DNA from: an uncultured Bdellovibrionales bacterium
GTDB taxonomy: Bacteria > Patescibacteriota > Minisyncoccia > Moranbacterales > UBA1568
Reading direction: 5' to 3'
Length of the DNA stretch: 64,000 nucleotides
Assembly (NCBI GenBank): GCA_964500505.1
Contig: CAZCNN010000002.1
Coordinates: forward strand, 4,081 to 68,080
The notes beneath the pieces were generated by a model. The model saw only the letters and a program-made list of their open reading frames with translations, did not search any database and was not told the DNA's origin. A program made the position numbers and the translations under genes. How positions within the stretch are numbered: the first letter of the stretch is position 1; every line of letters begins with the position of its first letter. Positions 9,084 through 38,033 of this stretch are shown here, piece after piece.

Positions 9084-9094
9084 CACGTTCCGGT

Positions 9095-10897: not shown

Positions 10898-10954
10898 TGG
10901 CCAGAGAGGGTTGCTTGGGAGTGGAGAACCCTTATGTGTGTAGGTCGAAAGAAG

Positions 10955-12368: not shown

Positions 12369-12459
12369 GTATGTTCAGTGCACTCTGCGCTGATCGCGTT
12401 CTTTCCTATCTGCAACGGCCATTTCGGCCACAACCGGGCTTTTGCCCAAGGAGATAGCC

Positions 12460-13767: not shown

Positions 13768-14046
13768 CCATCGGCCAACGCGCCAACAGCCCCCTCGTTT
13801 CACGACGAGCGGGGCTTTTTCTTTGACCAAAATGCTATTTTCTGAAAGAATGAAGAACATTCAAGAAATACTCTATGAGCCTCAAAGTTGGTACAGTATG
13901 GACTCTACCAGACATGATTCGAGTGATAGCTCGGTGAAATCAATCCCGTTTTCTTTCGTGATAAAGCTACCGCCTCCACTACAAAGGGGAGTAGACTATG
14001 GCTTCAAGCCATCAAAAAAGACTCCATAATCTCATTGGGATTTTCT

Positions 14047-16928: not shown

Positions 16929-16943
16929 CACGAGTGAAATTCC

Positions 16944-19725: not shown

Positions 19726-22601
19726 TCAATCCATACCTAAAAGGATCAATATGGCGAAAATGGGACCTGCAAACGCAGACCATTTTGGACGATAGCTATA
19801 TCTCTCTTTCCGAATATAGTGCTGAAATAAAGAAGACGAACCTTGCTGAGTGGCAACGGTATGTTGCCAAAGTTGGAGGCGAAGCCAACGCACTGCTCTA
19901 TGACTCAAAAGCATATTTTAATGACACGAGGATCGCAAAGAGTGATAGATGCGTAAATTATGTAAGGAATTACTTCGCTTTTCTCGAAGTGTTCAACCCT
20001 GATTTGGAGTGTGTGGGAATCACAGATCACAATTATTTTGACGACACCTTACTGGATACTTTCATTGAGTATTCACAACAATCAAAGTGTAGAATCATAC
20101 CGGGGGTAGAGATCAACTGTCAGGGTATTCACATGCTTCTGTTCTTTCCAAACAAGTTATATGGAAAGTCGACCTTCTCAGCTGGCATCCATGCATTTTT
20201 AATGAAGTTTAATATTGATAATCGAACGACTGATGCTGGAGTTCTCACTACTACATCACGAGACATCAAAGAGATTCTTGATGAGGTGAAAAAGAATGGT
20301 GGCATCGTTATATACCCTCACTGCAATAGCAGTAATGGACTCTTTCAAGAAAGAACAGCTAGTGATCGTACATATCTTGCGGACATTTTTAACCATCAGA
20401 AGGTGAACCTCCTGCAATCACAACACAACCAGTCGTCTGTGATATTGAGTGATTACATAAAAACAAATGCATCACTGACTGCAAAGTTCTGTTCGCATAT
20501 CAGCTCTGACGCCCGATCTCTGCGGGACTATGGACGCAGTGATCAAGACAATAACTTTTTATGGATTAAAGCGGATCCAACTTTTGAGGGATTGCGACAG
20601 ATTATTTATGAGCCAGAGCAACGCATCTTTGTTGGCCCACAGAAACCGGAAGAAAAGAAGTCATACTTCGTGATCGATAAGGTTCGCTTCATTGATAACT
20701 CTAGTGATGCAAAATTCACTAGTGATCAAATAGAGGTCAATCAGAATCTGACCACAATCATTGGTGGCAAATCGACTGGTAAATCGCTTCTGCTCTACTA
20801 CATGGCAAAAACGATTGATGGTCAGGAGGTCAAAAATAGGACAACTGATGCAGGCGTATCAATCAAGTATGACTTCGATACATCACCAGACTTCAACTTT
20901 GAGGTACTGTGGAAAGATGGTCAAAAGACACTATTGAAAGTGCCAGAAGGAACAAACGAAGAGGGGTCGAAAGAGCGTAAAATACTATACATACCGCAAA
21001 AGTATCTCAATACTCTCTCTGAAGCAAACATAGCAAGCCGTGAAGCTCTCAACGAGTTTGTTTTGGGCGTCATACTACAAGATGCAACTATTAGGGAAAA
21101 ATATGATGAAACTCTTCAAGAAATAAAAACCAAGACTAAGTCTGTGCCGAATGAGATCAATGAGCTTTTTTCTGACTTGGCGGATATCAAGAAAACTGAG
21201 GAGGAGCTGAAGCAGGCTGGTGATGAGAAAGGTATTGAGAGTTACATAGAGACTCTTCAAAAACGGGCAGACGACATCAAGGCGAAGTCTGGATTGACCG
21301 AGGATCAGATTAATCAATTCGAGGAATTGGTAACAAAGGAAAAAGAGATAAGTACACAGATCTCGAATCTTGAAGAAGACAAGAAAACCATAAAGAACCT
21401 CAATGTCAGTCTAGCTTCTCAAGTAGAAGGCCTTCGTACCACGACCGAAGAGTATGAGGCATACCTCAATGACGCTGACATCAAAACGAAATTTAAAACA
21501 GAGCTGAAAATCATTGACTCTTTTGTGCCAAATATTAAAACTGGTACAACAAATCTCATTACGGTTATAGATGCAAGAATTAAAGTTCACAACTTGGAGT
21601 TGGTAACAATCAAGGCAGGACTTGTACCATTACTGGCGAAAGTGCAAATGCAGACAGAGTTACAGGCACAAACAGATGCAATTAAAAAGGAACAGCAGAA
21701 GTTGAACGAGATAGCACTCAAAGCAAACAATCTCAAGACCAAGAAGGCCTCCTACAAAAAGAAGGCGGACGGAGTCATGGATTCATATAGCCAAATCATT
21801 GCGAAGTACGAGGGCTTAAGGAATGAGTTCAAGAAGTTTGAAAGCAAGTTTGGAGACATAACACTTGGAGTCCATGTCAGTTTTAATGACGATGCTTTTA
21901 ATGCAGAAGTGGTCAAGGAATATATCAACAAAAACGACCTAAAACGAGTGATAGTAGAGGCCGAGTGGGGCGATGAGTTTGTGTATCAATACGATCCGGT
22001 TAAACACTCGGCAAATATTACGACCGTATTCGAAGGTCTTATTGGTGGCACGATCAACACAGTCAAGAATCGTCAGCCCAAAGATGCGGTGGCGAAATTA
22101 CTAGAGAATTACTTCTTTCTCGATTTCCATATCTTCTACAAAAACGACTCGCTAGACAAGATGTCGCCCGGCAAAAAAGGATTGGTACTACTTCAGTTGC
22201 TAATAAACTTGAGCGATGAGGAGTGGCCTATTCTACTTGATCAACCAGAGGATGATCTTGATAACCGCTCGGTATACGACGACCTTGTGGACTTCCTAAA
22301 AAAGAAGAAGTTACAGAGGCAAATAATCATTGTTACCCATAATCCAAACCTTGTTGTTGGCGCTGACGCAGAAGAAACTATCGTTGCAAATCAATCAGGA
22401 CAAGAGGTGGGCAGAGAGAATAAGAAGTTTCGTTTTGAATATGTTACCGGAGCTCTAGAGAATACGTTTGAGGTTGATGTGACAGTCGAGCCAGCAATCC
22501 TGTACCGTAAAGGCATTCGCCAGCATGTTTGTGAGATACTCGAGGGTGGTAAAGAAGCGTTTCAAAAGCGTGAGCAAAAGTATAGTTTTCCACAAGAATA
22601 A
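19722..22601 (+). CDS. PHP-family phosphoesterase domain fused to SMC/Rad50/RecN-like ABC ATPase with long coiled coil (putative defence effector embedded in the type I R-M operon)
   Basis: N-terminal ~300 aa carry PHP-like metal-ligand blocks (GITDHNYFDD, PGVEIN, IHMLLF, IVIYPHC). Walker A IIGGKSTGKS at ~aa 345. About 450 aa of K/E-rich heptad-like sequence follow. Then the ABC signature MSPGKKGLVLLQLL, Walker B ILLDQPEDDLD and H-loop IIIVTHNP. Starts with ATGA overlapping the hsdS stop and ends 8 nt before hsdR. Confidence 0.6.
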   Translation: MINPYLKGSIWRKWDLQTQTILDDSYISLSEYSAEIKKTNLAEWQRYVAKVGGEANALLYDSKAYFNDTRIAKSDRCVNYVRNYFAFLEVFNPDLECVGITDHNYFDDTLLDTFIEYSQQSKCRIIPGVEINCQGIHMLLFFPNKLYGKSTFSAGIHAFLMKFNIDNRTTDAGVLTTTSRDIKEILDEVKKNGGIVIYPHCNSSNGLFQERTASDRTYLADIFNHQKVNLLQSQHNQSSVILSDYIKTNASLTAKFCSHISSDARSLRDYGRSDQDNNFLWIKADPTFEGLRQIIYEPEQRIFVGPQKPEEKKSYFVIDKVRFIDNSSDAKFTSDQIEVNQNLTTIIGGKSTGKSLLLYYMAKTIDGQEVKNRTTDAGVSIKYDFDTSPDFNFEVLWKDGQKTLLKVPEGTNEEGSKERKILYIPQKYLNTLSEANIASREALNEFVLGVILQDATIREKYDETLQEIKTKTKSVPNEINELFSDLADIKKTEEELKQAGDEKGIESYIETLQKRADDIKAKSGLTEDQINQFEELVTKEKEISTQISNLEEDKKTIKNLNVSLASQVEGLRTTTEEYEAYLNDADIKTKFKTELKIIDSFVPNIKTGTTNLITVIDARIKVHNLELVTIKAGLVPLLAKVQMQTELQAQTDAIKKEQQKLNEIALKANNLKTKKASYKKKADGVMDSYSQIIAKYEGLRNEFKKFESKFGDITLGVHVSFNDDAFNAEVVKEYINKNDLKRVIVEAEWGDEFVYQYDPVKHSANITTVFEGLIGGTINTVKNRQPKDAVAKLLENYFFLDFHIFYKNDSLDKMSPGKKGLVLLQLLINLSDEEWPILLDQPEDDLDNRSVYDDLVDFLKKKKLQRQIIIVTHNPNLVVGADAEETIVANQSGQEVGRENKKFRFEYVTGALENTFEVDVTVEPAILYRKGIRQHVCEILEGGKEAFQKREQKYSFPQE

Positions 22602-22609
22602 GTAATCCT

Positions 22610-25486
22610 ATGAAACCATCCGAAGCAAAATCAGTACAAGAGCGAATTATTAAGTATGCGGTCGAGTCCGGGTGGGCACTGGTTTCTCGTGCCGAAAGCG
22701 ACGCCCGCCGTGGTGATGAAATGGTATACAATGGCCAGCCCTACTATTCGGATGTGCTGATGCCAAAACTGCGAGAATTCAACCCATGGCTCCCGGCAGA
22801 CTATAGTGTTCCGACACCGGTCTCAAAGATAGAAGGAAATCGGCAGATACTACTCGCTCTCCGCGGACAGAGTACAGCCTATGATGAGGCAGAAAAACGA
22901 GAGCGCAATGTGAAAGTGATCGATTTTAAGCGCCTGGAGCGCAATGTCTATGAAGTAACGAGCGAGTTTGCTTTCTCGAATGGCCGATACAGTAATCGGC
23001 AGGATATCGTTTTCATGATCAATGGAGTGCCGATTATCGATCTGGAATGCAAGAACCTGACCACAGCGGAAGGGATTGATAAGGCACTGGATCAGATACG
23101 AAGGTATCATCGTGAGACGCCAGAGCTCTTGGTCCTTGAGCAGGGCTATGTTGCTAGTGAGGGGATGCGGCTTGAGTATGGCGTGACTTGGAATACGGTG
23201 AGGCGCAATATCTTCAAGTGGAATGGCGATAAGGTAGGGGAGCTCGAGAACAAGATTAAGACTTTTTTCGATATCAAGCACATTCTCAATTTGGTGGAGA
23301 AATATATCATGTTCATCGAGAAGGATGAAGAATTGACCAAGCTCGTCCTACGGGAGCATCAGGCGAATGCGGTGGAGGCGGTGTTGACCCGGGCATTGAA
23401 AGAAGATGCAACGAGAGGATTGGTCTGGCATACACAGGGCTCAGGGAAGACTTTTACCATGATCAAGACAGCCGAGCTCTTGTTCAAGAGTGATGAGGCA
23501 GACAAGCCGACGGTCATCATGATGCTCGATAGGAATGAGCTCGAGGGACAGATGGAGGGGAATTTGATGGCTGCCGGACTCTCGAATGTCCGAAAGGCGC
23601 TGAGTATTACGGACCTGGTAGAAATACTCCGTTCAGACTATCGGGGTATCGTCATTACCATGATCCATAAATTCCGTGGATTGCCGGCCGATTTGAACAC
23701 CCGAAAGAATATCTTTGTCTTGATTGATGAGGCGCATCGTTCAACTGGGAGCGACCTTGGGACATTTGTAATGGCAGCTATGCCGAATGCGACCTTTGTT
23801 GGGTATACCGGAACGCCGATTGATAAAGCGCAGTACGGCAAGGGGACATTCAAGACTTTTGGAGTGGATGATGCCAAAGGGTATCTGCATAAATACAGTA
23901 TTAGTGAGAGTATCGCTGACGGCACAACATTACCGCTCTACTATAGCTTGGCACCCAATGAGATGCTTGTACCCAAAGAAACGCTTGAAAGGGAGTTTCT
24001 AAACCTCGCCGAGGAGCATGGAGTGACGGATATCGAAGAGTTGAATGCAATTCTCGAGCGAGCGGTGAATACCCGGAACTTTCTCAAGGGTGCCGGACGC
24101 ATCGAAAAGGTAGGTAAGTTTATCGCTGAACACTTCAAGGAATATATCGAGCCGATGAACTATAAGGCATTTGTCGTCGCTGTCGATCGTGAAGCGTGTG
24201 CCTTGTACAAAAAGGAACTAGACAAGTATCTGCCGAAGGCATGGAGCGAGGTGGTCTACACGAGCAATAATAACGATACCGAACTCTTGAAGGAGTTTGA
24301 CCATGATGAGGAGATCGAGAAGAAGATCCGGCGAGACTTCGCCCGATTTGGCGGCACGCCAAAAATCCTTATCGTGACTGAAAAGCTCCTGACGGGTTAT
24401 GATGCACCGATCCTGTACTGCATGTATCTGGATAAGCCGATGCGTGACCATGCATTGCTCCAGACTATCGCTCGAGTGAATCGTCCGTATGAGAATGAAG
24501 AGATGAAAATGATGAAGCCTCACGGTTTTGTGCTCGACTTTGTGGGAATATTCGACAAGCTCGAAAAAGCGCTGTCGTTTGATAGTGATGAAGTGAATGC
24601 CATCGTCAAAGACTTGTCGCTTTTGAAAGAGCGGTTTGTGAAGAAACTAACTGAAGAGGCAAAGCCGTATTCGGATCTCCTTGTTGGTCCGTTTGATGAC
24701 CGGCTCGCAGGGGTCTTGATTGAGCATTTCCGGGATGAAGAAGTGAGGAAAGCATTCTTCAAACTCTACAACGAGATTGAGATGTTCTATGAGATCATTT
24801 CTCCGGATGCGTTCTTACGACCCTATGTGGATCAGTACATGACTCTTTCAAGCGCCTATCAAGTGGTACGAAATGCCTATGCCGACCATGTCTCTATCGA
24901 CCGAGAGTTTCAAAAGAAGACAGCGGCACTGGTGCAGGAACATATTCAGAGTAGTCCGATCAAATTGGGTACGGAGATAGTCCGACTTGATGAGAAGGGG
25001 ATCGCACTGATCAAAGAAAAGAATCAGCCGGATGAGGTGAAGATTATCAACCTGATCAAGAGTATTCAGCGATTGGCTGAGGAGAAGTCCAATGACCCAG
25101 TGCTCATTTCGGTCAAAGAGCGGGCTGAGGATATCTTGGATGCGTACTCAAGCCGACAGATGACCACGCAGGAAGCCTTGAAACAGTTGCTTGCTTTGGC
25201 TGAAGGCGAGGCGGAGCGGAGTGCGGAACAGGAGAAAGAGGGTATTTCTTCGGTAGCTTGGTTTATCCGGGATTTACTGGCGGAGAGCAAGATTATCGAT
25301 ATGCAAGTGGTAAAAGAGCTTGAAACGATAATCGGGCAGTATCCAGAGTTTGCCAAGAGCGAGAAGCTGACTCGTGATCTTCGAAATCATATCTATAGAG
25401 GTCTTGGCGCACTTGATCTTACTCCCACGGAGGAGAAAAGAATAACTGATCAGTTGCTCGAGACTCTCGTGCGAACAAGTCTATGA
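22610..25486 (+). CDS. hsdR: type I restriction enzyme endonuclease/helicase subunit (HsdR)
   Basis: SF2 helicase motifs HTQGSGKTFTM (I) and DEAHRS (II). N-terminal nuclease domain and the characteristic ~950-aa length. Confidence 0.9.
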   Translation: MKPSEAKSVQERIIKYAVESGWALVSRAESDARRGDEMVYNGQPYYSDVLMPKLREFNPWLPADYSVPTPVSKIEGNRQILLALRGQSTAYDEAEKRERNVKVIDFKRLERNVYEVTSEFAFSNGRYSNRQDIVFMINGVPIIDLECKNLTTAEGIDKALDQIRRYHRETPELLVLEQGYVASEGMRLEYGVTWNTVRRNIFKWNGDKVGELENKIKTFFDIKHILNLVEKYIMFIEKDEELTKLVLREHQANAVEAVLTRALKEDATRGLVWHTQGSGKTFTMIKTAELLFKSDEADKPTVIMMLDRNELEGQMEGNLMAAGLSNVRKALSITDLVEILRSDYRGIVITMIHKFRGLPADLNTRKNIFVLIDEAHRSTGSDLGTFVMAAMPNATFVGYTGTPIDKAQYGKGTFKTFGVDDAKGYLHKYSISESIADGTTLPLYYSLAPNEMLVPKETLEREFLNLAEEHGVTDIEELNAILERAVNTRNFLKGAGRIEKVGKFIAEHFKEYIEPMNYKAFVVAVDREACALYKKELDKYLPKAWSEVVYTSNNNDTELLKEFDHDEEIEKKIRRDFARFGGTPKILIVTEKLLTGYDAPILYCMYLDKPMRDHALLQTIARVNRPYENEEMKMMKPHGFVLDFVGIFDKLEKALSFDSDEVNAIVKDLSLLKERFVKKLTEEAKPYSDLLVGPFDDRLAGVLIEHFRDEEVRKAFFKLYNEIEMFYEIISPDAFLRPYVDQYMTLSSAYQVVRNAYADHVSIDREFQKKTAALVQEHIQSSPIKLGTEIVRLDEKGIALIKEKNQPDEVKIINLIKSIQRLAEEKSNDPVLISVKERAEDILDAYSSRQMTTQEALKQLLALAEGEAERSAEQEKEGISSVAWFIRDLLAESKIIDMQVVKELETIIGQYPEFAKSEKLTRDLRNHIYRGLGALDLTPTEEKRITDQLLETLVRTSL

Positions 25487-25812
25487 AAAGAAAAACAGTA
25501 AAAACATGGGAGTCGAAGAAGGAATTTAAGGAGGAGGTATATCTGTGCGCCAATAAAATCAAAGTGAAACTGAAGCAGGTGACACTCCGGCTGATGACTC
25601 GAAAGTGGGCGAGCTGTTCGACTAATGGCTATTTTACTTTCAACACCGAACTCTTGGGTATGGATCGTTCGCTGGGTGAGTATGTGATCATGCATGAGCT
25701 CCTTCATTACCATGTCCCGAACCATGGAAAGCTTTGGAAGAGTCTAATGATGGTACATATGCCGGACCATGAGAAGAGGGCACAGAAGCTGAAAGTCATG
25801 CATAGTAGATAG
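25483..25812 (+). CDS. DUF45/YgjP/WLM-type zinc metallohydrolase commonly linked to type I R-M hsdR
   Basis: HELLHYHVPNHGKLW is the HExxH...H motif of the M48/YgjP family. Start overlaps the hsdR stop by 4 nt. Confidence 0.7.
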   Translation: MKRKTVKTWESKKEFKEEVYLCANKIKVKLKQVTLRLMTRKWASCSTNGYFTFNTELLGMDRSLGEYVIMHELLHYHVPNHGKLWKSLMMVHMPDHEKRAQKLKVMHSR

Positions 25813-26165
25813 AATGCTTTATCTAAGCCACAAGACTGGATTTTTCAGTGAAAATTTGATAATATGTAGAGGTGAGAACAATTTGAAAAAGTAGCCTAAA
25901 CCAGTAGCGATACTGGCATGGTGAAAAAGTCCAGTTAGACATAAAGATCCCATCGTATGGGGTGTCTAACTGGCCGTATCGGGAAACTGGTACGAGGAGC
26001 TTCGGCTTCTACCTATGCGGTGGGTTTTTTGCATTTATTTTTACAAAACTATGAAAGAAGATTTTTTTAATCCATTCGCCATGATATTTGGAGGGATACC
26101 GATTTCACTCGGTATATACGGTCTAATGACAAACGGCGAACAATGGTTCTCCTATATTCTGATTT

Positions 26166-26687
26166 TTGGCGGAGCATATTTTTGGTGGTGGTGGGTCAAG
26201 TAATTCGGTAGAGAACATGAGTGAATTTTGCTCAAAATGCGGAGTCGAAACAAGTGATAGTGATGACCTACACTGTCGCAGAGTATTTGTTGATGAAATG
26301 AATAAACTCCTGTCGTTGCAGGACTTTGAAAAAGCGCAGGCCCTCTACCTTTCAGTATCGTTCGATGACGTGTGGAAGGAGCACTTTTTACACAGTAAGG
26401 GAGGCAGTTTAGGTCGACTGATACTAAATGAGGTAAAGAGAACAAAAACTAAACAACGCCATCGAGAACTACTAACTTCTTCAGGTATAGCCTACAAAGG
26501 GGTATCAGCTATTTCAGCGATGAAGAAACATCGTATTACTCATTGTTACGAATGCAAGGAATCTTTAGATAACTCAAGCGATATCGAGTGCAATATCTGT
26601 GGATGGATTATCTGTGATCTTGGTCACTGTGACTGTGTGCGCCGAGAAAATCAGAGACAACTAAGTAGTGTAGATATAAGCATATGA
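26166..26687 (+). CDS. hypothetical Cys-rich protein (multiple CxxC zinc-ribbon-like motifs)
   Basis: CSKCG...HC and CYECKE...CNICGWIICDLGHCDC clusters. No family recognised. Confidence 0.4.
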   Translation: MAEHIFGGGGSSNSVENMSEFCSKCGVETSDSDDLHCRRVFVDEMNKLLSLQDFEKAQALYLSVSFDDVWKEHFLHSKGGSLGRLILNEVKRTKTKQRHRELLTSSGIAYKGVSAISAMKKHRITHCYECKESLDNSSDIECNICGWIICDLGHCDCVRRENQRQLSSVDISI

Positions 26688-27289
26688 AAAACAAACTTCT
26701 CTATATCGCGGTATCAGTCTTTCTCTTCATCGGAGTCTTTTATCTTGTCTGGCAAAGGCTTCACTCCGAACGAGCACCCACAACAGAAGCTGTCGCACCT
26801 ACTGTCCAAGATCAAGTAGTCGAGGCAGTAGCAGAAGAGAATTACCCTGTAGCCGAAGAAATCACTTTTACTGCAGATCAACTGAAATCCTACTATGCCG
26901 TCTACGATGATTCATTTGTTATCCATATTAGGAAAGCCTTGAATGGGTATCTCTCAGGAACGAATGAGGGGATGGAGATACCGGCTGCCGTCATAGAAAA
27001 ACATGATATGACCAGTGGCTCTCTTGGGGGACTGGCAGCGTTTGAGAAAGACTACTATCAGAGCAAGTTCGTCGTGGTAGCCCTAGAAGATGCCCTGATG
27101 GGAGGGAAGACGGCAACCATCATCTTTCAGGATAGGCCGGACCGAGTCTTTACCGCCTGGGTATACAAGCTAGGTGAGGATCAATATGACCTCCGAGGAT
27201 TCTGGGAAGACGGAAAAGCTACTCAGAATATCGACGAAACCCTCAAGACTCTTGGAAAATTCGTTTTTGATAAAGAGCACAGTCTATAA
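26684..27289 (+). CDS. hypothetical membrane-anchored/secreted protein
   Basis: N-terminal TM helix LLYIAVSVFLFIGVFYLVW. Start overlaps the previous stop by 4 nt. Confidence 0.45.
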   Translation: MKNKLLYIAVSVFLFIGVFYLVWQRLHSERAPTTEAVAPTVQDQVVEAVAEENYPVAEEITFTADQLKSYYAVYDDSFVIHIRKALNGYLSGTNEGMEIPAAVIEKHDMTSGSLGGLAAFEKDYYQSKFVVVALEDALMGGKTATIIFQDRPDRVFTAWVYKLGEDQYDLRGFWEDGKATQNIDETLKTLGKFVFDKEHSL

Positions 27290-27311
27290 GTAATTACTCT
27301 AAAGTAACACT

Positions 27312-27485
27312 ATGACATCGAGAGGAATGTTTTTCGCATCAGCCCTTGTCTATTTTGTAGCGACAGCCCTGAGAGAGTACGGTTACGATGTTTTAGCGAG
27401 CGGTCTGAGCGTGAGTGGACTCGTTATGCTGTTGGCTGGGGGTCTTGTGTATTCCAGAGAAAAGCGAGCTGAGAAAAATGTCTAA
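27312..27485 (+). CDS. possible small membrane protein (57 aa, two hydrophobic helices)
   Basis: ATG..TAA ORF below the ORF-track size cut-off (MTSRGMFFASALVYFVATAL...LVMLLAGGLVYSREKRAEKNV). Its last 10 codons lie inside the left direct repeat. Confidence 0.3.
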   Translation: MTSRGMFFASALVYFVATALREYGYDVLASGLSVSGLVMLLAGGLVYSREKRAEKNV

Positions 27486-27499
27486 GGTCTTATGTGGGC
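27456..27499. repeat. left copy of imperfect ~45-bp direct repeat (AGAGAAAAGCGAGCTGA...CTAA..CTTATGTGGG) flanking the AT-rich glycosyltransferase locus
   Basis: Matches 31807-31849 (16/17 identical in the first block, 10/10 in CTTATGTGGG, shared CTAA). Confidence 0.5.
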
Positions 27500-28101
27500 A
27501 GGAACTTTTAGTGAGAACATCCTGTTTCCTCAAGGCTACAACCATCCTATGGCTTCCATGGTCTGGGGGTGGAAAGCGTGACTATGTGACGTGGTTTAGT
27601 GGGAGCCGAACGGATCTTGCCCATAGCCGTGAAACAGCCAACGATCAAATCCGGTGTTTTACTCTATCAAACTGTATACCAGACTAAAAGTAGAGTTGAC
27701 AGGAAGCAGCCAATTCTGTATTATAATTAGGCCTTTTTGATGTATTCTTGGAGGTTTATGATTAAGAAAGATGTAGTTCATTCGGATAACGAGCAGAAAG
27801 GGGAGGATCGTGTAGAGGACAGTGTTCTTGTGGACAGATCGCTTGAGAGGATTCCTCCAGGAAGATCAGTTGAGGAAGGACGCCTGTTCGACTCCTTGGC
27901 TAGGTATCCTCACAAGTGGGATTCAAAATCAGATGTACTGTAGCCAAGAGCGTTTGGTTGTATGGCGAGAGAAATCTCGCCTTTTCTACTCTAAAGAATT
28001 CGGATGAGACACTCACATTTGCTAGAATTCATGAGAATATTATTCATTACTAGCGGCAGAAAAAGCCTTTCAAGGCTTTTTATTGTCTAATATAGGTTTT
28101 T

Positions 28102-29334
28102 ATGAGTATAGATTTGAGCCAGTTTTTTTTCTTGATTCTCACGATTCTACTTATTTCACTCATTGATTTTGTTGTCTTAGTACGAGCACGTTTAAAAGAT
28201 CATCATACTGTTGAGGAATACACCAAATCAGACCTGAATTATACTATTCTCGTTCCTATATTTGGTAATATTTCTTACCTCAGAAATATAGATTTTCTTA
28301 AGCAATACGCTAAACACGTTGTTCTTTGTACGACCACTAAAGAAAATGCGGAATTTGATGAAGCGATTAACAACATTGCTTCTGAACATGGATTCCGAGT
28401 CTTTCGCTCAGAGGTTCCGATTGCTTCTGCTTCACATAGACCAAATCCCTGGCGTCTTTTTACTCATACGTTGCATGGCAAAGGAAATTTACACGTAACA
28501 GAAGATGTTTCTTCGGTTGGCGATAGGTTTAACAGAGAAATTGCACGAGATGAAATCATCAAAGATAGTTTTTCTGCCATTGAGACAGACTACTGTATCT
28601 TTTTGGATGGAGATACTACTGCTAAAGAGAAGCTTTTCAAATTAGTGCATCTTGTTAGGGAACTTGACTTTGATTTAGCCTCTGTTCGGGTGCTTGCATC
28701 CAAGCAAGAAACTATAATGGAAAAACTCCAGGCTGTCGAATACGATCTAGCTATGGATGCACGGAAGATCTATCCTTGGCTGACATCGGGTGCTTGCATG
28801 GTTGCCAAGACAGAAGTAATTAAAGACATTATGCAGCACCATTCCTTGTTCTTTTCGGGTGGAGATATTGAAATAGGGAAGCTTGCTGGTATATTAAAAT
28901 ACAAAGTAGGGCACGTAAGGTTTGAATTTTATACAGATGTGCCATCTACATTTAAATCTTGGTTTAAACAAAGAATGGCCTGGTTTGGGGGGGGATTTAG
29001 ACATGCTGTTGTGAACTTGCATAGATATGCATGGAGACACCCTCTTTTCTATTTCTATACAACAATTCTGGTCTATCTTTTGACTCCTCTCCGGTGGTAC
29101 GAAGTAGTGAAGCATCCCGAAGCCTTACCTATTGTGATTGTTCTCTATTGGTTTCTTATCTTTGCTTTTCACTGGAAAACAAAAAAATGGTTTTATTTTC
29201 TCTTCCCTTTCTATGCGTTACTTCAAATTCTGATTCTCATTCCGTTAGGAGTTTTGACTTATATAAGAATGGCATTCAGTACGAGTAATATTGGGATGAT
29301 TCGATTGCGGGGGAAGCTTAGAAATAATATGTAA
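28102..29334 (+). CDS. membrane glycosyltransferase family 2 (DxD motif, C-terminal TM bundle; PgaC/IcaA/cellulose-synthase-like)
   Basis: N-terminal TM. DxD motif FLDGDTT. QRMAW resembling the Q(R/Q)xRW motif. Multiple C-terminal TM helices. Strongly AT-rich codon usage. Confidence 0.65.
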   Translation: MSIDLSQFFFLILTILLISLIDFVVLVRARLKDHHTVEEYTKSDLNYTILVPIFGNISYLRNIDFLKQYAKHVVLCTTTKENAEFDEAINNIASEHGFRVFRSEVPIASASHRPNPWRLFTHTLHGKGNLHVTEDVSSVGDRFNREIARDEIIKDSFSAIETDYCIFLDGDTTAKEKLFKLVHLVRELDFDLASVRVLASKQETIMEKLQAVEYDLAMDARKIYPWLTSGACMVAKTEVIKDIMQHHSLFFSGGDIEIGKLAGILKYKVGHVRFEFYTDVPSTFKSWFKQRMAWFGGGFRHAVVNLHRYAWRHPLFYFYTTILVYLLTPLRWYEVVKHPEALPIVIVLYWFLIFAFHWKTKKWFYFLFPFYALLQILILIPLGVLTYIRMAFSTSNIGMIRLRGKLRNNM

Positions 29335-29340
29335 ATTATC

Positions 29341-30384
29341 ATGAAGAACATTTTTCTCTTCTCTTTATTTCTGATAATTTCTTTAGTCTTTGTAGTATCT
29401 AGGTACTTTATTAATGTTGTTCCAAACGAAAATATAGTGGAAGAAAATAAAGTTGTTGAAAGAAAGACCTTAGCCAAGGAATACGGAAATGCTGTATGGG
29501 ATTGGCAGCCTCTAAAAAGAGAAGACACGGATACTTTTTTCTCTGATCTTCAGGCAAGAGGAGTCAATTCTGTCTACATGAACATAGGGGATTATGTGGA
29601 TATTCATGAAATAAAAGATGATACGAAAAAGGGGGAAAAAACTGAAGAATTTAATACAAAGGTAGAGGAATATATAAATACTGCTCAAGAGTATGGGATT
29701 TCCGTGCACGCCCTAGCGGGTAACGTAGACTGGGGGAACTCCTCTCATCGTTACCTGAACGAAGTTGTTATTGAATATACTAGGAGTTTTAACAAAAATA
29801 ATCCTGAAATAAAGTTTCAAGGAGTACAGTTTGATATTGAACCATATAGCCAGGAGGGTTTTGCTACGAAAAATAGAGAAGCTATTTTCCTAGACTACCT
29901 CGATACTGTTTCTGGTATTGTTTCAATATTCGACAAGTATCAAGGACAAGATTCGGAGTTTAAAGGGATGAAACTAGGTTTTGTTATACCGTACTGGTTC
30001 GATGGTGAGACAGAGTACTCAAAAAAGATTATTTGGAATGGGGAGGAGAAATACCTTTTCTATCACATTTTGAATAGGATTAATAGGATTCAAGATGGCT
30101 ACCTTGTAATAATGGCCTACAGAAATTTTGCTGAAGGATCAGGAGGATCTATTGAGCATAGTTTGGAGGAGGTAAAGTTTGCGCAACAGAATACCCCGAG
30201 GGTGAGGATTGTTATTGGTCAAGAAACTTCAGATGTAGAACCGGAGAGGATCACATTCTTTACCATGCCATTTAATAATATGGTTGACGAGGTAAAAAAA
30301 ATTAGCACAAGGTACGAAATATTCCCAAACTTCGGAGGTTTCGCTTTCAACAATGCTGATTCTTTCCTGGGGTTGGATTGGTAA
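29341..30384 (+). CDS. hypothetical exported protein (possible polysaccharide-active enzyme partner)
   Basis: N-terminal signal/TM helix. Lies between two GT2 genes in the same AT-rich block. No motif recognised. Confidence 0.5.
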   Translation: MKNIFLFSLFLIISLVFVVSRYFINVVPNENIVEENKVVERKTLAKEYGNAVWDWQPLKREDTDTFFSDLQARGVNSVYMNIGDYVDIHEIKDDTKKGEKTEEFNTKVEEYINTAQEYGISVHALAGNVDWGNSSHRYLNEVVIEYTRSFNKNNPEIKFQGVQFDIEPYSQEGFATKNREAIFLDYLDTVSGIVSIFDKYQGQDSEFKGMKLGFVIPYWFDGETEYSKKIIWNGEEKYLFYHILNRINRIQDGYLVIMAYRNFAEGSGGSIEHSLEEVKFAQQNTPRVRIVIGQETSDVEPERITFFTMPFNNMVDEVKKISTRYEIFPNFGGFAFNNADSFLGLDW

Positions 30385-30449
30385 GTAACTTTGAAATAAG
30401 CGTGTTAAAACAAAAACATTTTTGACTCCTCTTTTGTTTTGATACGCTT

Positions 30450-31808
30450 ATGAGCTTTGCCAAAGTTTCTATATTTGCTAGTAAGTCGAAAGGGTATTTC
30501 GGCTCTTTCTTTGCTGCGTTATTTGTAGTCGCTACGACTGGGTATTTTTATACGCAGATTATTGCTCAAGAGAATATCTTCGATTCTTTTCTCATCGGTG
30601 TCGTCTTCTTATCTGCTTCCACTGACGGTTTTTTCCTTTTGCTGAACATATTTAGAAAGTCAAAAAAATCGAGTAACCTCAGCTTCGACCCTTCTAAGCT
30701 GAGTATTCTTATTGCTTGCTATAATGGCGAGCAAATAATTGGAGAAACCATCAGGCAAGTATTAACAAAAGTTCCAAAAGAACAAGTCTTTGTTGTTTCT
30801 GATGCTTCAACAGACCAAACCGGAGTGGTGGTTAAGCAGTGGGGTGTGAATCTCATCGAAAATGAAGTGAATAAAAATAAGGCACTGAGTATTAGCCATG
30901 CTATTGAACAAGTTAAAACCCCTTACGTGCTTATTTTGGATGATGACACTCATATCGAAAGTACTTTCATCCCCACTAGTCTTATAGATGACGGTTATGC
31001 AGCCGTTGCTTTTAATGTCATGCCGGAACCGCATCCCTCACTTATTAATAGGTTACAACAATTTGAGTATAGAAAAAGCATGGTTTTAGGGAAAGAACTG
31101 AGAGCAGCGGTAGGTGCGATAGGCAATGTATCGGGGGCTATAGGACTTTTTAAGACCCGAGATCTTGTTGCCCAAATACGGAAACATTCGGGACAATTTG
31201 GCGGAGAAGACCAGCAGAGGACCATGATGGTGCATTTGGAGAGTACTGGTAAAGGGATTGCTTATACCGATTCGACTGTACTCACCGAACCACCGAGTAC
31301 CTTTTATAAGGTATTCAGGCAAAGATATAGGAGTTGGAATTGCTCTACTCATGAAACTTTTTTTCTTTGCTGGAAAATAATTCTGTCACCAAAATTGCAT
31401 TACATGCTTAAGCTTGAGAGGGCGTACCTGATTTTCATTTTACTTACAGACCCTATAAGGATGCTATTCTTTTTCAGCATCCTTTTCTATCCGATAAATC
31501 TTGTTATTTTATACTGCCTATATTTATTTCTAGAGACTTGTTGCTGGTTAAAGACAGGGAGGAAAGACAGTTTTTTTATTGTGATTCTCACTCCCTTTTA
31601 CGGCATGTTTAAAACTTTTGCAAGATTCATAGCTCACTTTTGGTGGTTCAAACTAAAATATGACTACCTTTTTAGGAAGAAGTTTCATGTATATATTACG
31701 GAACGAGCGTTGATTTTAGAGTATGCTGGCATTGCAATTGCTCTGGTATTTGTTTGGTATTATGCCTTTTTGCAATTTTCAAGTCATATTAGTGAGTTAT
31801 CCCGTTAG
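30450..31808 (+). CDS. processive family-2 glycosyltransferase (beta-glycan synthase type; DxD and QxxRW motifs, TM-rich)
   Basis: GT2 N-terminal block ILIACYNGEQ. DxD motif LILDDDT. FRQRYRSW is the Q(Q/R)xRW processivity motif. Four or more C-terminal TM helices. Confidence 0.7.
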   Translation: MSFAKVSIFASKSKGYFGSFFAALFVVATTGYFYTQIIAQENIFDSFLIGVVFLSASTDGFFLLLNIFRKSKKSSNLSFDPSKLSILIACYNGEQIIGETIRQVLTKVPKEQVFVVSDASTDQTGVVVKQWGVNLIENEVNKNKALSISHAIEQVKTPYVLILDDDTHIESTFIPTSLIDDGYAAVAFNVMPEPHPSLINRLQQFEYRKSMVLGKELRAAVGAIGNVSGAIGLFKTRDLVAQIRKHSGQFGGEDQQRTMMVHLESTGKGIAYTDSTVLTEPPSTFYKVFRQRYRSWNCSTHETFFLCWKIILSPKLHYMLKLERAYLIFILLTDPIRMLFFFSILFYPINLVILYCLYLFLETCCWLKTGRKDSFFIVILTPFYGMFKTFARFIAHFWWFKLKYDYLFRKKFHVYITERALILEYAGIAIALVFVWYYAFLQFSSHISELSR

Positions 31809-31849
31809 AGAGAAGCGAGCTGACAATCTACTAAAACCTTATGTGGGAA
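31807..31849. repeat. right copy of imperfect direct repeat (AGAGAGAAGCGAGCTGA...CTAA..CTTATGTGGG)
   Basis: See 27456-27499. Begins 1 nt before the stop codon of the GT2 gene. Confidence 0.5.
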
Positions 31850-32005
31850 AAGATCGTAGAATTCTTGATAGCATCACAGACCTTTGTATCAGCTTCCCTT
31901 TGTCGTGCCCGAGCCGCCAGTCATAATAGACCAAACATTGCTTTTAGGGGGTAAAAGTGAGATATTCGTATCATAAAGGACAAAAGTAGTTAAGATTGCA
32001 TACCT

Positions 32006-32356
32006 ATGAAAGAACAGGAAGAGCAAGATCCTGATTACATCAAGAACTTACTTTCTCGAGTGAAGCTTTCGCCTGAAAACGAAAAAGACTTCGATAGTTT
32101 CGTTCAGGCATCTGTTGATAGTCTAAATAGGAGTTCTGGTGAAAGTGTTGAGAGGAGCAATCGATATGACAAGATATATGCTGTCGAACGGAAAAAGTGG
32201 CCGCATGGGATGGGGAGTATGAAAACTAGAGATGATGTACCAGAACATCTACAGGATGAGCTCGAGAAGTGTATCATCAGATCGCAAATTGTTGCTCGTG
32301 ACGCCTGTCAGACTCAAGAGCTAACAGACAAGTATCTAGCGGAAAACCTAGGATAG
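32006..32356 (+). CDS. hypothetical protein
   Basis: ATG-start ORF with no recognisable motif. Confidence 0.35.
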   Translation: MKEQEEQDPDYIKNLLSRVKLSPENEKDFDSFVQASVDSLNRSSGESVERSNRYDKIYAVERKKWPHGMGSMKTRDDVPEHLQDELEKCIIRSQIVARDACQTQELTDKYLAENLG

Positions 32357-32419
32357 ATATTCCTAACAAAAAACGGCGAAACCTCACTTAGGAATCGCCG
32401 TCTTGAGTGTCCGTTGCCA

Positions 32420-33103
32420 TTATCGATGCGCTGGCATGAGGAAGGATGAAATCAGTTCCGAAGCATCGTACTTCGAACATGACTCAGCCTCTTGAAGCCA
32501 CTTCTCCCTCTCTCGTGGGTTATAGATCTTCTCAGCTATAAGGGAATAGAGTAGAGTTTTCTGCTTTTCCGTGATTGGCTCGTCCCCGGGTTGGTACGGA
32601 CCTTTCGGGGGAATGCCATTGGTAGCCTCAGCCGGAGCCTCCTGAATCTTCTCAATAGGCATATCCTCCAGATCACTGGTGAATATATCGGAGAGCCCTG
32701 TGGATCGGATGACGCCGGAGATATAGGCAGATTTCTCCGACATCTTGATCGTCTTATTGGGGTCATTTCCATTGTCCATGAGCGTGGCGGCACCTCGACC
32801 CTGCCCAACTATCTCACCGAAGCGTGTGAGTGTGCAGGTATAGGCAATCAACCCATCTATGCTTCGAAATGAATCCATGGTTTCGGTATCTTTTTCGAAG
32901 GTAGCAACGAGTGAATAGATTGCTGCTAGTTTTTCGGCACCGGACTTCCCGAGGCTCTTCCGGTTTTTGATGATGTAGTAGTCTCTGTTTTCCTCTAGTT
33001 TCGGGAGAATCTTCTGAATGAAGTAATCCCGTTTCTGGAGCAGAGTATCGACACCAGCTTTGAACTGGTCGACACTGTCCGATATGGTCAACGCTGTCGT
33101 CAT
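32420..33103 (-). CDS. hypothetical phage-associated protein (weak resemblance to single-strand annealing/ERF-like proteins; unverified)
   Basis: 227 aa, acidic C-terminus. Lies in the phage-like block. No firm motif. Confidence 0.4.
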   Translation of the reverse strand: MTTALTISDSVDQFKAGVDTLLQKRDYFIQKILPKLEENRDYYIIKNRKSLGKSGAEKLAAIYSLVATFEKDTETMDSFRSIDGLIAYTCTLTRFGEIVGQGRGAATLMDNGNDPNKTIKMSEKSAYISGVIRSTGLSDIFTSDLEDMPIEKIQEAPAEATNGIPPKGPYQPGDEPITEKQKTLLYSLIAEKIYNPREREKWLQEAESCSKYDASELISSFLMPAHR

Positions 33104-33120
33104 AATTTTGAATAAAAGAA

Positions 33121-33327
33121 TTAGTATTCTTCGGGGAGCATAGCCGTGTAGCCAAACTCGCCGTTATCAGCGACAAAGTACTTTTTGCCGTTGATTTCGA
33201 CTGAATAGAACCAGTCGTCTTGCGCCTTCGCTAATGCATGGAAGGCGACTTCTACTTGTTCTCGAATCTTTGATGGCTGATCCATCATGCCTTGGGTCCA
33301 GATGCCGATGAATTTTTGGCTACACAT
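33121..33327 (-). CDS. small hypothetical protein
   Basis: 68-aa ORF 17 nt downstream of 32420..33103 on the same strand. Confidence 0.3.
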   Translation of the reverse strand: MCSQKFIGIWTQGMMDQPSKIREQVEVAFHALAKAQDDWFYSVEINGKKYFVADNGEFGYTAMLPEEY

Positions 33328-34028
33328 ATTTCATAGACGCATGTGATGGCAACGCATGTTCGACGAGGCACGCAGAGGGTGAATGTTGCGAGAATTAATA
33401 ACCTCTACATGATCAAGTGGTAAGCGAACGAAAAAGAGTGGAGGTGAGTAGTCTTGAGGGTGTATAGGGGCGTATTTGGGTACTCTTTGGTATGAGCGGG
33501 TCCCTTTGAGTAAGGGTACTGACACGGGGGATTTCTTAGATACCGCTTTAGTCTTATCGGCATTATTCTGACTCTTTGGATACAAGTCAGTCTTTTGAAG
33601 TATTTTTTAGCACAGTTCAGTCTCAAGATCAGCTGCTTGCTAATTAAGAGAGCTCTGTTTACTGGATCAGTTTCCTAATTCTTCGTGCAGGTTTTTAAAA
33701 AATTCCGTATTGCTCTGATTCTATCGACCAATGCTTGACAAGGGGTTGTGGACACATCTTTTTATTTGCCAATTCAAAAATCGTGGCTTATTAGAGCCGC
33801 TTTAAAGCTATTTTTTTGAAAGTTGATGGAAAAAGTGGTTCAAAAATAACCAGTTTTATGGCTCAGATAAGCCATCATAAATCATTAGTACTGAGATAAT
33901 CTGAAAATGTTAGGTGAGTATCGCCTAATGGACACCACAAATACGGCGCATACCCTTTTTGTGGAAGCCGTCTCAGCGAAAGCTGGGGTGGTGTCCAGAA
34001 AAAGGGTTTTATTTTTTATCAGTAACAT

Positions 34029-35388: not shown

Positions 35389-35904
35389 ATGAAGGCAACA
35401 AAGAAAGTTTCGAAGAAAGTCGTTCAAGGAAAACCGGTGTACGCGATCATCTTTTGTCGGACAAGTTCGAGACGGGGGAGTGAGCAAAAAATGAGGCAGC
35501 AAGAGCAGCGGTGCGTGAAGTTCGCTCAGGCAGAAGGGTACATTGTGAAAGAAGATGCGATATTTCGGGAGATAGCTTCTGGAACAGAGCGATACCAGAA
35601 GCGTCCTGTACTCGTCAAAATACTCGAGTATATTGAGCGGTTTCATAAAAAGCAATTTATTCTGATTGTTACTGATACGCAACGCATTAGCCGTGATAAA
35701 CGCAATGTCTCTGCTTATAGGAAAGCACTTTTCGTAAGAACGGCTTTGGTTGAGTCACTGAATTGTCTTGCAAAGCAATCAATTGAGGATCAAATGAGAA
35801 AAATAGAAGATTATCTTTTCAAATGCCACGAGCGCAATGTTGTATATGGATGGTGGGAGGAAGTGACGCCAGAGCAAGATCGCTCCGGTGTCGACCCTAA
35901 GTAA
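35389..35904 (+). CDS. serine recombinase catalytic-domain protein (resolvase N-terminal domain only, 171 aa)
   Basis: YAIIFCRTSS..GSEQ...Q...C..FA...GY......E..SGT.....RP.L..IL..I......ILIVTDTQRISRD follows the resolvase/invertase catalytic-domain pattern. Lacks a C-terminal HTH. Confidence 0.55.
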   Translation: MKATKKVSKKVVQGKPVYAIIFCRTSSRRGSEQKMRQQEQRCVKFAQAEGYIVKEDAIFREIASGTERYQKRPVLVKILEYIERFHKKQFILIVTDTQRISRDKRNVSAYRKALFVRTALVESLNCLAKQSIEDQMRKIEDYLFKCHERNVVYGWWEEVTPEQDRSGVDPK

Positions 35905-36180: not shown

Positions 36181-36378
36181 ATGATAGATAATATGAAACT
36201 CCTTACGAGACAAGAAGTCGCAGCGCTGTTGCGAGTTGATCCTCGAACTGTTGAGCGATGGCTCCGAAGTGGGAAACTGAAGGGCTATAAGCTCGGTGAT
36301 GGTAAAACCGCTCCGTGGCGAATTGATGAAGCAGAGGTACAAAGGTTTCTGGAGAAAAATAATGGAAGAGACCTATGA
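36181..36378 (+). CDS. excisionase/MerR-type HTH protein (putative recombination directionality factor)
   Basis: LTRQEVAALLRVDPRTVERWLRSGKLKGYKLG matches the Xis-type HTH. Immediately upstream of, and overlapping by 4 nt, the large serine recombinase gene. Confidence 0.6.
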   Translation: MIDNMKLLTRQEVAALLRVDPRTVERWLRSGKLKGYKLGDGKTAPWRIDEAEVQRFLEKNNGRDL

Positions 36379-38033
36379 AAGAAAGGGTCCAAAAAGAAGG
36401 TAAATTGGTTGCCGTCTACGGTAGAGTCTCAACTTCAAATCAGGAGAATGAGAAGACCATTGAGACGCAGCTTTTGGCTGTCCACGAACTTGCCGAAAAA
36501 GAAAATTACACTATTGTGCAAGAATATCTTGATGAGGGTTGGAGCGGAGATAATCTCGCAAGACCAGGCCTCGATCAACTTCGCATCGATGCAAAGAAGA
36601 AGAATTGGGAAGCCGTATTGATTTATGACCCAGATAGATTGGCTCGGCGGGGAGCGTGGCAAGAAGTAGTGATGGAGGAGTTAAAAGAACTAGAGATCGA
36701 TGTTCTTTTTGTCACTATTCCAAAACCAAAAACCGACGAGGATGTCATCATGTATAAAATGAGAGGTGTGTTCGCTGAATATGAAAGAATGAAAATAGCG
36801 GAGCGTTTTCGGCTCGGAAAGAAGCGGAAAGTAGAAGAGGGACATGTTCTTACCACGGAAGCTCCTTATGGTTATCGCTACATCCGAAATGACAAGGATA
36901 AAAAGCAGCATGGATATTATGAGATCGTTGAAGAAGAAGCAAGAGTGGTGAGGATGATGTTCACTTGGATTGGTGAACATGGCTTCACTATTCGGCAAGT
37001 AGTTCGGAAGTTGCAGGAGCTCGGTATCAAACCGAAGAGGAGCAAGCGAGGAGTGTGGAATACGAGCACATTGTCTACATCGCTTCGCAATAAGACCTAT
37101 ATCGGAGAGGCTCACTACGGGAGTACTTATGCAGTAGTGCCCAAAAATCCCCAAAGCAAAGAAAAGTTTCGCAAAGTAAAAAAGAGTAGCCGAAAGAATA
37201 GACCAGAGGAGGAGTGGATAGCATCGAAAATCCCTGTACCGGCAATTATCGATAAGCCACTTTTTGCGAAAGTGCGCGCCCAATTAGAGGCGAATTTTGC
37301 TCTGTGTCAGCGTAATGCGAAGAACGAGTATTTGCTTGGAAGCAAAATATTCTGCTCTTGTGGTACAAAACGGAATGGTGAGGGTCCCCAACATGGCAAG
37401 CACCTGTATTACCGCTGTAGCAATCGGGTGTATAGTTTTCCGTTGCCTCGCACATGCCATGAAGGTGGGATTAATGCGAGAATTACTGATCGGTTGGTAT
37501 GGGAAGGAATCGACAGACTGCTGACTTCTCCGGATTTGTTACTGGCACAGATAGATCAGTGGAAGAAGAATCAAAAACATGAATCTCAGTCCGTCTTTGG
37601 GGATATTGAGGTAATAAAGAAGGAAATAGCAAAACTGAAAACGCAACAGGACCGATATAATAGAGCATACGGAGCCGAAGTCCTGACGTTAGAGCAGTTG
37701 AAGGGGTACACTGCATCCATAAGGAGTGATATTGCAGCGCTTGAGTCACAGATAAGAATGGCGGAACAGCAAGAGGGTCAGTCGAAGGTTGGTCGTGAGC
37801 CAACAAGGGAGGAGATAGAGGCCTTGGCAGAAAGAGCGACAAAAAATCTCAGGGACTTGAATTTTAACGGAAAAAGAGGGATAGTAAGAGACATTGTAGA
37901 AAAAGTCATTGGTACCCAATTGCAGGTAGAAGTATCCGGAGCTATTCCTTTAACGACACTAAACTATGTCGAGTACAAAACTGAAAGTCGGAATCGTAGG
38001 ACTGCCAAACGTCGGGAAATCGACGCTGTTTAA
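36375..38033 (+). CDS. large serine recombinase (phage-type serine integrase)
   Basis: N-terminal catalytic domain (LVAVYGRVSTSNQ...LIYDPDRLARR), recombinase domain, Cys-rich zinc ribbon (CSCG...YYRC) and coiled-coil region. 3' end overlaps the ychF start by 68 nt. Confidence 0.85.
   Translation: MKERVQKEGKLVAVYGRVSTSNQENEKTIETQLLAVHELAEKENYTIVQEYLDEGWSGDNLARPGLDQLRIDAKKKNWEAVLIYDPDRLARRGAWQEVVMEELKELEIDVLFVTIPKPKTDEDVIMYKMRGVFAEYERMKIAERFRLGKKRKVEEGHVLTTEAPYGYRYIRNDKDKKQHGYYEIVEEEARVVRMMFTWIGEHGFTIRQVVRKLQELGIKPKRSKRGVWNTSTLSTSLRNKTYIGEAHYGSTYAVVPKNPQSKEKFRKVKKSSRKNRPEEEWIASKIPVPAIIDKPLFAKVRAQLEANFALCQRNAKNEYLLGSKIFCSCGTKRNGEGPQHGKHLYYRCSNRVYSFPLPRTCHEGGINARITDRLVWEGIDRLLTSPDLLLAQIDQWKKNQKHESQSVFGDIEVIKKEIAKLKTQQDRYNRAYGAEVLTLEQLKGYTASIRSDIAALESQIRMAEQQEGQSKVGREPTREEIEALAERATKNLRDLNFNGKRGIVRDIVEKVIGTQLQVEVSGAIPLTTLNYVEYKTESRNRRTAKRREIDAV

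Follow-up and report, generated by a model that had tools for sequence, protein, structure and literature searches.

We analysed a 64,000-nt stretch of chromosomal DNA from a Candidatus Moranbacteria (Patescibacteria) host (contig CAZCNN010000002.1, hereafter the window) to follow up an initial annotation according to which imperfect direct repeats bracket a 4.3-kb AT-rich block encoding two family 2 glycosyltransferases (GT2) and an exported protein. Comparison with related loci confirms that the block is a 4308-bp insert flanked by a 41-43-bp duplication of its target, situated in the cargo region of a larger island that is integrated in the ychF gene. The reading that we favour, and consider reasonably probable, is that the insert arose by a one-off, ancient, illegitimate (recombinase-independent) event with two junctions, in which no dedicated system took part.

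Empty sites establish a target duplication around the insert

The elements on which the argument turns are listed here, with positions in the window; the open reading frames (ORFs) are named by the length of their product in amino acids (aa).

27312-27485, forward strand: gene for a 57-aa membrane protein with two helices, an ORF conserved in loci L003, L008 and L009
27456-27498, forward strand: left target copy (copy 1), 43 bp, extending over the 57-aa gene's stop codon and the ATG of the ancestral gene that follows
27499-31806, forward strand: insert, 4308 bp, G+C content (GC) 0.384, delimited by blastn and global alignment to locus L007 and absent from the empty sites L008-L010
31807-31847, forward strand: right target copy (copy 2), 41 bp, drifted in its middle and opening with the final 2 nt of the second GT2 gene's stop codon
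31842-31921, forward strand: remnant of a 146/149-aa gene, its first ~80 nt, with ~367 bp of the gene deleted; L003 is in the same state

Related islands were reached through homologues of the 201-aa protein encoded just upstream (26684-27289). In one of them, L009, the 201-aa gene is followed by a small membrane-protein gene, a 149-aa gene, a 116-aa gene and, on the opposite strand, a 227-aa gene. The last two are the genes that lie 3' of the GT2 block in the window, and the block itself is absent. L010, L011 and L012 are further copies of the L009 arrangement, and L008 is a third, more diverged island that has a 146-aa gene and likewise lacks the block. By blastn, window positions 26683-27498 (left flank plus copy 1) correspond to L009 154-966, and positions 31807-31921 (copy 2 plus right flank) to L009 924-1039, where the window jumps from L009 1039 to L009 1407 within the truncated 149-aa gene. 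A single stretch of L009, 924-966 (AGAGAGAAGCGAGCTGAGAAAAATGTCTAAAGCCATATGTGGG), is thus matched by both window copies, the left flank extending copy 1 and the right flank copy 2, and L008 8292-8334 is matched by both in the same way. Homology of the left flank to the empty sites stops exactly at 27498. Because single-copy empty sites carry the two flanks on opposite sides of one 43-bp stretch, the repeats are a true target duplication. This bears out the proposal that the insertion duplicated its target, with the 3' end of the gene for the small membrane protein, and the empty site with one repeat copy that the initial annotation had suggested looking for exists in L009, L010, L012 and L008.

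Both copies lie where the initial annotation had placed them. Its starts are correct, and its ends (27499 and 31849) overshoot the true ones (27498 and 31847) by 1-2 nt. Copy 1 (AGAGAAAAGCGAGCTGAGAAAAATGTCTAAGGTCTTATGTGGG) and copy 2 (AGAGAGAAGCGAGCTGACAATCTACTAAAACCTTATGTGGG) are identical in 34 of 44 aligned columns (77%), with insertions and deletions in the middle. Against the single-copy site L009 924-966, copy 1 is identical at 39 of 43 positions (91%) and copy 2 at 36 of 44 (82%). Each copy is therefore nearer to the single-copy site than to the other copy, which fits two descendants of one sequence. Copy 1 preserves the whole 57-aa gene, the last 30 nt of which fall within the duplicated target, in agreement with the overlap first described, and copy 2 preserves the beginning of the following 146/149-aa gene, whose start is retained in the window as ATGTGGGAAAAG (MWEK). 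The 43-mer showed no marked dyad symmetry.

Taken without the comparison loci, the similarity of the repeats is statistically marginal. A self-BLASTN comparison, as had been advised, returned the copy pair as joint best direct local alignment of the 24-kb island, with a score of only 20 (E = 0.25) that was equalled or exceeded in 3 of 40 block-wise dinucleotide shuffles of the island, and a repeat search of the window ranked the pair among many families at chance level. Sequence statistics alone would not settle the question, and it is the other loci that decide it. These weak intrinsic figures are what speaks for a chance resemblance, the block being ordinary, vertically inherited island DNA. 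Against it, three independent empty-site sequences map both copies to one 43-bp stretch with the flanks on opposite sides, and the homology to L007 described below stops at the repeat edges. The empty-site comparison refutes chance similarity, and we give that explanation practically no credence.

A scan of all fetched loci counted the 43-mer twice in the window, in L001/L002 and in L003-L005, once in L008, L009, L010 and L012, and not at all in L007 or L014-L022, among which L007 and L014-L016 are other contexts of the same gene cassette. The short contigs L006 and L013 each extend over one junction only. All filled copies seen (the window, L003-L006 and L013) have the same junctions and hence trace to one event, the only one documented. 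A pattern scan of metagenome contigs for the target revealed no new state of the site, only another filled copy (L013). The more distant relatives of the 201-aa gene, L020-L022, lack the 57-aa gene and so have no bearing on reuse of the site. Scans of genome contigs with the 201-aa alignment and with the 347-aa protein of the insert, and of viral contigs with the 201-aa protein, confirmed no relatives, and megablast of 26000-33500 against plasmid and phage collections gave no match.

The insert matches part of a donor-like gene cluster

Seven parts can be distinguished within the insert.

27507-27688, forward strand: C-terminal remnant of a GH81 (endo-beta-1,3-glucanase family) gene, a frameshifted pseudogene with an internal deletion of ~180 nt
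27696-27724, forward strand: promoter-like site TTGACA-17-TATTAT, matching the consensus at 11 of 12 positions, its function predicted
27737-27943, forward strand: small conserved ORF, ~60-68 aa, aligning with a 67-aa ORF of L007 (common motif EEGxxFDxxxxYPxKWDxKS)
27964-27981: terminator-like hairpin, after the small ORF
28102-29334, forward strand: GT2 glycosyltransferase of the membrane-embedded synthase type, 410 aa (Pfam Glyco_trans_2_3, 8e-12)
29341-30384, forward strand: 347-aa protein with an N-terminal membrane anchor or signal sequence, a putative triosephosphate isomerase (TIM) barrel
30450-31808, forward strand: second GT2 glycosyltransferase of the membrane-embedded synthase type, 452 aa (Pfam Glycos_transf_2, 2.5e-16)

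Outside these islands, the locus most closely related to the cassette is L007; its second GT2 and that of the window share 85% protein identity. L007 has a full-length GH81 gene (652 aa), the 67-aa ORF and then the three cassette genes, in a cluster of GC 0.50 that also holds two more GT2 genes and an HlyD-like gene. Its GH81 protein is bona fide, matching the PDB GH81 entry 6FOP at 1.4e-69. The insert is collinear with L007, at ~76% DNA identity, starting near GH81 codon 529 and ending with the stop codon that terminates the second GT2 gene, and the homology runs unbroken from the GH81 remnant through the promoter-like site (a TTGACA...TACTAT arrangement being kept at that position in L007), the small ORF, the hairpin and the three genes. 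On each side, L007-like DNA reaches to 0-8 nt from the repeat. At the right, CGTTAG, with the second GT2 stop codon, is the limit of the homology; beyond it the window continues with target sequence and L007 with unrelated DNA. At the left, blastn aligns window 27512-27602 with L007 6868-6957, and tblastn of the L007 GH81 protein recovers aa 529-551, 549-560 and 621-648 in three frames (E values of 5e-6, 8e-6 and 6e-7). The left end of the insert is thus a break inside a gene that is intact in L007, and not the natural end of an element.

Against L007 the junctions can be read approximately. On the right, donor-like TTAG meets target AGAGAG, and 2 nt (AG) are attributable to either side. On the left, the target ends in TATGTGGG, followed by CAGGAAC and then by codons for FSEN that belong to GH81. 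In GH81 proteins YWF is uninterrupted here, so the 7-8 nt at 27499-27506 are either filler or specific to the donor, and TGG is possibly common to target and donor. The possible marks of an illegitimate two-junction insertion are a donor break within the GH81 coding sequence, an AG overlap on the right, and TGG plus ~7 unmatched nt on the left, the exact bases being uncertain because the nearest donor-like DNA is just ~76% identical. Terminal inverted repeats were not found at the insert ends, where the best score (8) was reached by 60% of shuffles. None of the five ORFs or remnants between the repeats has a recombinase or transposase domain, which agrees with what had first been described, and the nearest recombinases are of the serine type, at least 3.5 kb away.

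The composition of the block had been taken as a further sign of insertion. The difference is real: the three cassette genes in the window have a GC of 0.377, as against 0.435 and 0.445 in the flanks. The L007 cassette (7001-11400) is AT-rich as well, however, with a GC of 0.406 against 0.50 in its flanks. Low GC therefore characterises the cassette and is no sign of this particular insertion. In L007, too, the three-gene cassette (7001-11400, GC 0.41) may have been acquired, at an earlier date; around the cassette in L007 or L014 no repeats stand out.

The cassette also occurs in a permuted order. In L014 3444-9278 (and in L015 and L016), its genes are circularly permuted, the second GT2 (GT2-465) coming first, then the first GT2 (GT2-411) and the 344-aa protein, directly upstream of a 591-aa large serine recombinase. 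The L014 element is AT-rich and has primase-like and SNase genes; DNA identity to the cassette is ~70%, in coding regions only.

Age of the insertion and probable later spread of the module

The insertion had been considered possibly ancient, and the divergences point the same way. Copy 2 differs from the empty site by ~18-21%, filled and empty islands differ by 20-22%, and the cassette differs from L007 by 24%. The similar size of these values suggests that the duplication is about as old as those splits, and hence that the insertion is probably old. The ~367-bp deletion in the 149-aa gene of the filled allele means that the extant empty sites cannot come from the extant filled allele by excision.

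L003 carries a distinct island at this ychF site, and what flanks the filled allele there is other cargo (upstream, a helicase, a WYL protein and a DUF2130 protein; downstream, an SNase protein and a bPH_3/SHOCT protein). Window 26743-31964 and L003 6298-11516 are 94.6% identical, as against 71-87% in the rest of the shared island, and the breakpoints of this module lie within the 201-aa gene and in an intergenic region. The contrast in identity indicates that the module spread later by homologous recombination, and points to a recent exchange between the window and L003 islands. At the other module swap that separates L003 from the window, the boundaries are formed by conserved intergenic sequence, and no repeat flanks it. 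The 57-aa protein differs from that of L009 in 3 of 57 aa, in a setting of ~78% DNA identity.

Favoured mechanism and alternatives

We propose that, in a single ancient event, the cargo region of a serine-recombinase island in a Ca. Moranbacteria lineage gained a 4.3-kb fragment from a chromosomal polysaccharide gene cluster. The fragment would have spanned the 3' part of a GH81 gene, the small ORF with its own promoter, a GT2 synthase, the TIM-barrel-like anchored protein and the second GT2 synthase, and would have landed between the 57-aa membrane-protein gene and the 146/149-aa gene. If the two junctions formed 41-43 bp apart on the target, that stretch would be duplicated on both sides of the insert. 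Such a geometry could result from a staggered break that was filled in and end-joined to a linear fragment, or from a replication template switch to the donor and then back to a point 43 bp upstream; the ends would have been joined through microhomologies of 2-3 nt (TGG at the left junction, AG at the right), with some filler added. Subsequently, in an order that we can only suggest, the GH81 stub would have decayed and the 149-aa gene lost ~367 bp, copy 2 would have drifted because it was noncoding after the insertion, and the whole module (26743-31964) would have been exchanged between diverged islands by homologous recombination.

Several points weigh against this proposal. The nearest donor-like locus, L007, has just ~76% identity, and the microhomology and filler readings at the junctions are therefore approximate. 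What is now seen could also have been shortened by later deletions, whether from a longer duplication or from a larger insert with a recombinase gene of its own. With 43 bp, the duplication has a size typical of integrase attachment (att) cores, and the circular permutation of the three cassette genes in L014, next to a further serine recombinase, is what a circular intermediate could produce. Few related islands have been sampled, so that the site may have been used more than once.

These points bring us to the reading of the initial annotation, a site-specifically inserted islet with att-like sites. In its most tenable form, the repeats would be the attL and attR of a small integrative element, moved by a tyrosine-type or other enzyme that acted in trans or has since been deleted, whose attP would have matched the end of the 57-aa gene over ~43 bp. 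Repeats in direct orientation and of att-core size, their single copy at empty sites, the intact state of both neighbouring genes (as with element-borne gene ends) and the occurrence of the cassette in permuted order on recombinase-bearing elements are all consistent with it. They have to be set against a left end that looks like a random break in a GH81 gene intact in L007, the lack of an integrase in or beside the insert and among the island ORFs scanned, the lack of dyad symmetry at the site, a single insertion event with one set of junctions, and the absence of the 43-mer from L007, L014-L016 and the other cassette loci, which leaves no attP-like copy in view. We therefore did not retain the islet interpretation, and judge even this form of it unlikely. 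Slightly less plausible to us is a Campbell-type integration, in which a cassette circle with a stretch homologous to the target, perhaps longer at the time and trimmed later, entered by a single homologous crossover. The target-insert-target topology is what one crossover would leave, and these islands clearly swap modules by homologous recombination. The circle, however, must already have joined the GT2 stop codon, island sequence and the GH81 stub, so that an earlier illegitimate event would still be needed; 43 bp is short for RecA-type recombination, and such a circular junction is absent from all fetched loci.

Transposition or recombination in trans we regard as very unlikely, whether by the island's serine recombinases, as the initial annotation suggested, or by a transposase making long duplications. 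Recombinase genes do lie 3.5-6 kb off, and the target duplications of some insertion sequence (IS) families (IS1634-like) run from tens to hundreds of bp. Serine recombinases, on the other hand, exchange strands with a 2-bp stagger and leave no long duplication, and the island's own attL and attR share only ~8 imperfect bp, which makes its serine recombinase an improbable agent of a 41-43-bp duplication; the short core without long duplication that is the hallmark of large serine recombinases contrasts with the 41-43-bp flanks of the GT2 insert. For a transposase, the insert lacks terminal inverted repeats and a transposase gene, and its left end lies within a gene fragment. It is just as doubtful that the boundary between the 57-aa and 149-aa genes is a dedicated cargo-capture site of this family of Patescibacteria islands, which an unrecognised activity encoded by the element would cut with a stagger of ~43 nt to take up arbitrary fragments. 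If true, such a site would explain both the clean, long duplication without a recombinase signature and the permuted GT2 cassette on the L014 element. Set beside these alternatives, an illegitimate two-junction insertion remains the account that we prefer.

Predicted products of the insert

Both GT2 assignments of the initial annotation are confirmed by Pfam, the two proteins passing the Pfam GT2 cut-offs. They have DxD and QxxRW-like motifs (QRMAW and QRYRSW) and hydrophobic termini; in the 410-aa protein, DxD, QRMAW and hydrophobic C-terminal helices were read from the sequence. The 452-aa protein matches the PgaC_IcaA family at 7e-22, under the family cut-off, and the similarity of the 410-aa protein to this family is weak (77.8 and 20.9 bits for the two GT2 proteins vs a cut-off of 422). 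These scores support membership in the GT2 superfamily and do not support membership in PgaC_IcaA. The 452-aa protein has 233 homologues, and all organism names given among them are Patescibacteria. As the one phylum-named homologue of the 201-aa protein is also from this phylum, there is no sign of cross-phylum transfer.

The 347-aa protein has no sequence match in Pfam, NCBIfam or PDB. A single-sequence AlphaFold model (predicted local distance difference test score, pLDDT, 56) shows an alternating strand/helix pattern, and Foldseek searches with this low-confidence model returned TIM barrels, among them many glycoside hydrolases, at TM-scores of just 0.25-0.4. From this the protein is probably a (beta/alpha)8 barrel and possibly a glycosidase. 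Judging only by its protein families, the cassette probably makes and trims a surface polysaccharide or exopolysaccharide.

The host island in ychF

The insert is one item of cargo in an integrated island, whose main features outside the insert are as follows.

13892-37990, forward strand: integrated island, 24.1 kb, within the first codons (5' end) of ychF; GC 0.435 vs ~0.52 (0.521) outside
35389-35904: small resolvase-like serine recombinase, in the island
36375-38033, forward strand: large serine recombinase, 552 aa, identified by Pfam, in the island

An island-free strain, L023, has flanks 96-98% identical to those of the window and an uninterrupted ychF site at 15724-15745 (CTCTATGAGCCTCAAAGTTGG|AATCGTGGGACTGCC). 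The corresponding junctions in the window are CAAAGTTGG|TACAGT on the left (13884-13892) and GAAAGTCGG|AATCGT on the right (37983-37991). By comparison with L023, the two island ends share only the ~8 imperfect bp cited above, as expected of a large serine recombinase. The recombinase ORF crosses the right junction and overlaps ychF by 68 nt, and the island replaces the N-terminus of YchF, which reads MSSTKLKVG instead of MSLKVG. The island therefore sits in ychF, where a large serine recombinase placed it. One Logan contig, 24,189 bp long, is equivalent to the island by itself.

The island's cargo comprises GmrSD, a type I restriction-modification system, an SMC-like gene, the GT2 block, an HTH_36 protein and the small resolvase-like protein. 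Its defence genes lie at 14805-25812 and encode a 707-aa GmrSD-Schlafen/AlbA_2 fusion, HsdM, HsdS and HsdR; the gene for the 959-aa SMC-like protein sits between hsdS and hsdR, and a YgjP-like metalloprotease gene comes after. The 201-aa protein, secreted or anchored, is without a Pfam family. Among the metagenomic contigs sampled, its relatives turn up repeatedly on serine-recombinase islands that carry defence genes (GmrSD, AAA_11/12 helicases), in L008, L009 and L020-L022; besides the homologue named as Patescibacteria, a second is labelled merely 'bacterium'. Just left of the island, the two strains differ at a second variable spot beside the ychF site (window 12405-13771 vs L023 13160-15620): L023 has an rve-type insertion sequence and a 431-aa gene, and the window an unrelated 441-aa ORF (12442-13767) of GC 0.57. 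Elsewhere in the window, the TrpRS encoded at 8103-9083 is 98% identical to a protein listed by NCBI under Candidatus Moraniibacteriota, with Ca. Moranbacteria as the next named matches. The protein with a Cpn60_TCP1 Pfam match is GroEL, and does not indicate an archaeal host.

Comparison with known systems

A search of the literature found nothing specific on this arrangement. Among recombinase-dependent systems, the attL and attR cores of prophages, genomic islands and archaeal SSV-type elements measure ~15-60 bp. The repeat described here resembles them in size, in its single copy at empty sites and in covering the 3' end of a gene that is left intact; it departs from them in having no integrase, no discrete terminus, no attP-like copy elsewhere, no sign of site reuse and non-identical copies. 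With transposon insertions it shares a duplicated target that flanks the insert, whereas its 43 bp compare with duplications of 2-14 bp, terminal inverted repeats and a transposase are lacking, and the insert starts inside a gene fragment.

In content, two membrane GT2 proteins with a putative TIM-barrel glycosidase recall synthase-dependent exopolysaccharide modules (PgaC/IcaA-, cellulose- or curdlan-synthase-like), and the L007 cassette is linked to genes for a GH81 glucanase and more GT2 enzymes. Unlike known modules of this kind, its proteins score far under every curated family cut-off, and the middle protein has no recognisable family. Bacteria of the Candidate Phyla Radiation live attached to host cells, and for this reason islands that carry polysaccharide synthases beside defence genes may alter surface properties.

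Illegitimate insertion of foreign DNA is familiar as double illegitimate and homology-facilitated illegitimate recombination in naturally transformable bacteria, and insertions by end joining can leave short target deletions or duplications. Our case is like these in that the insert has no recombinase or defined ends, begins in a gene truncated at one end, shows at most 2-3 nt of microhomology with possible filler, and stems from a single event. It differs in its clean 41-43-bp duplication, longer than usually reported, in its Patescibacteria host and in a target that lies in a mobile island, and the mechanism has to be read from junctions that have drifted. With a filled allele, an empty allele and a donor-like locus, it offers a clean case of a mobile island that would have taken up a functional part of a chromosomal cluster for surface polysaccharide and passed it on to sister islands; its value is as an example of how Candidate Phyla Radiation islands gather cargo, and as a correction of the annotation. 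As a whole, it looks like a known kind of event, ordinary illegitimate recombination, in a poorly studied lineage, rather than a new system.

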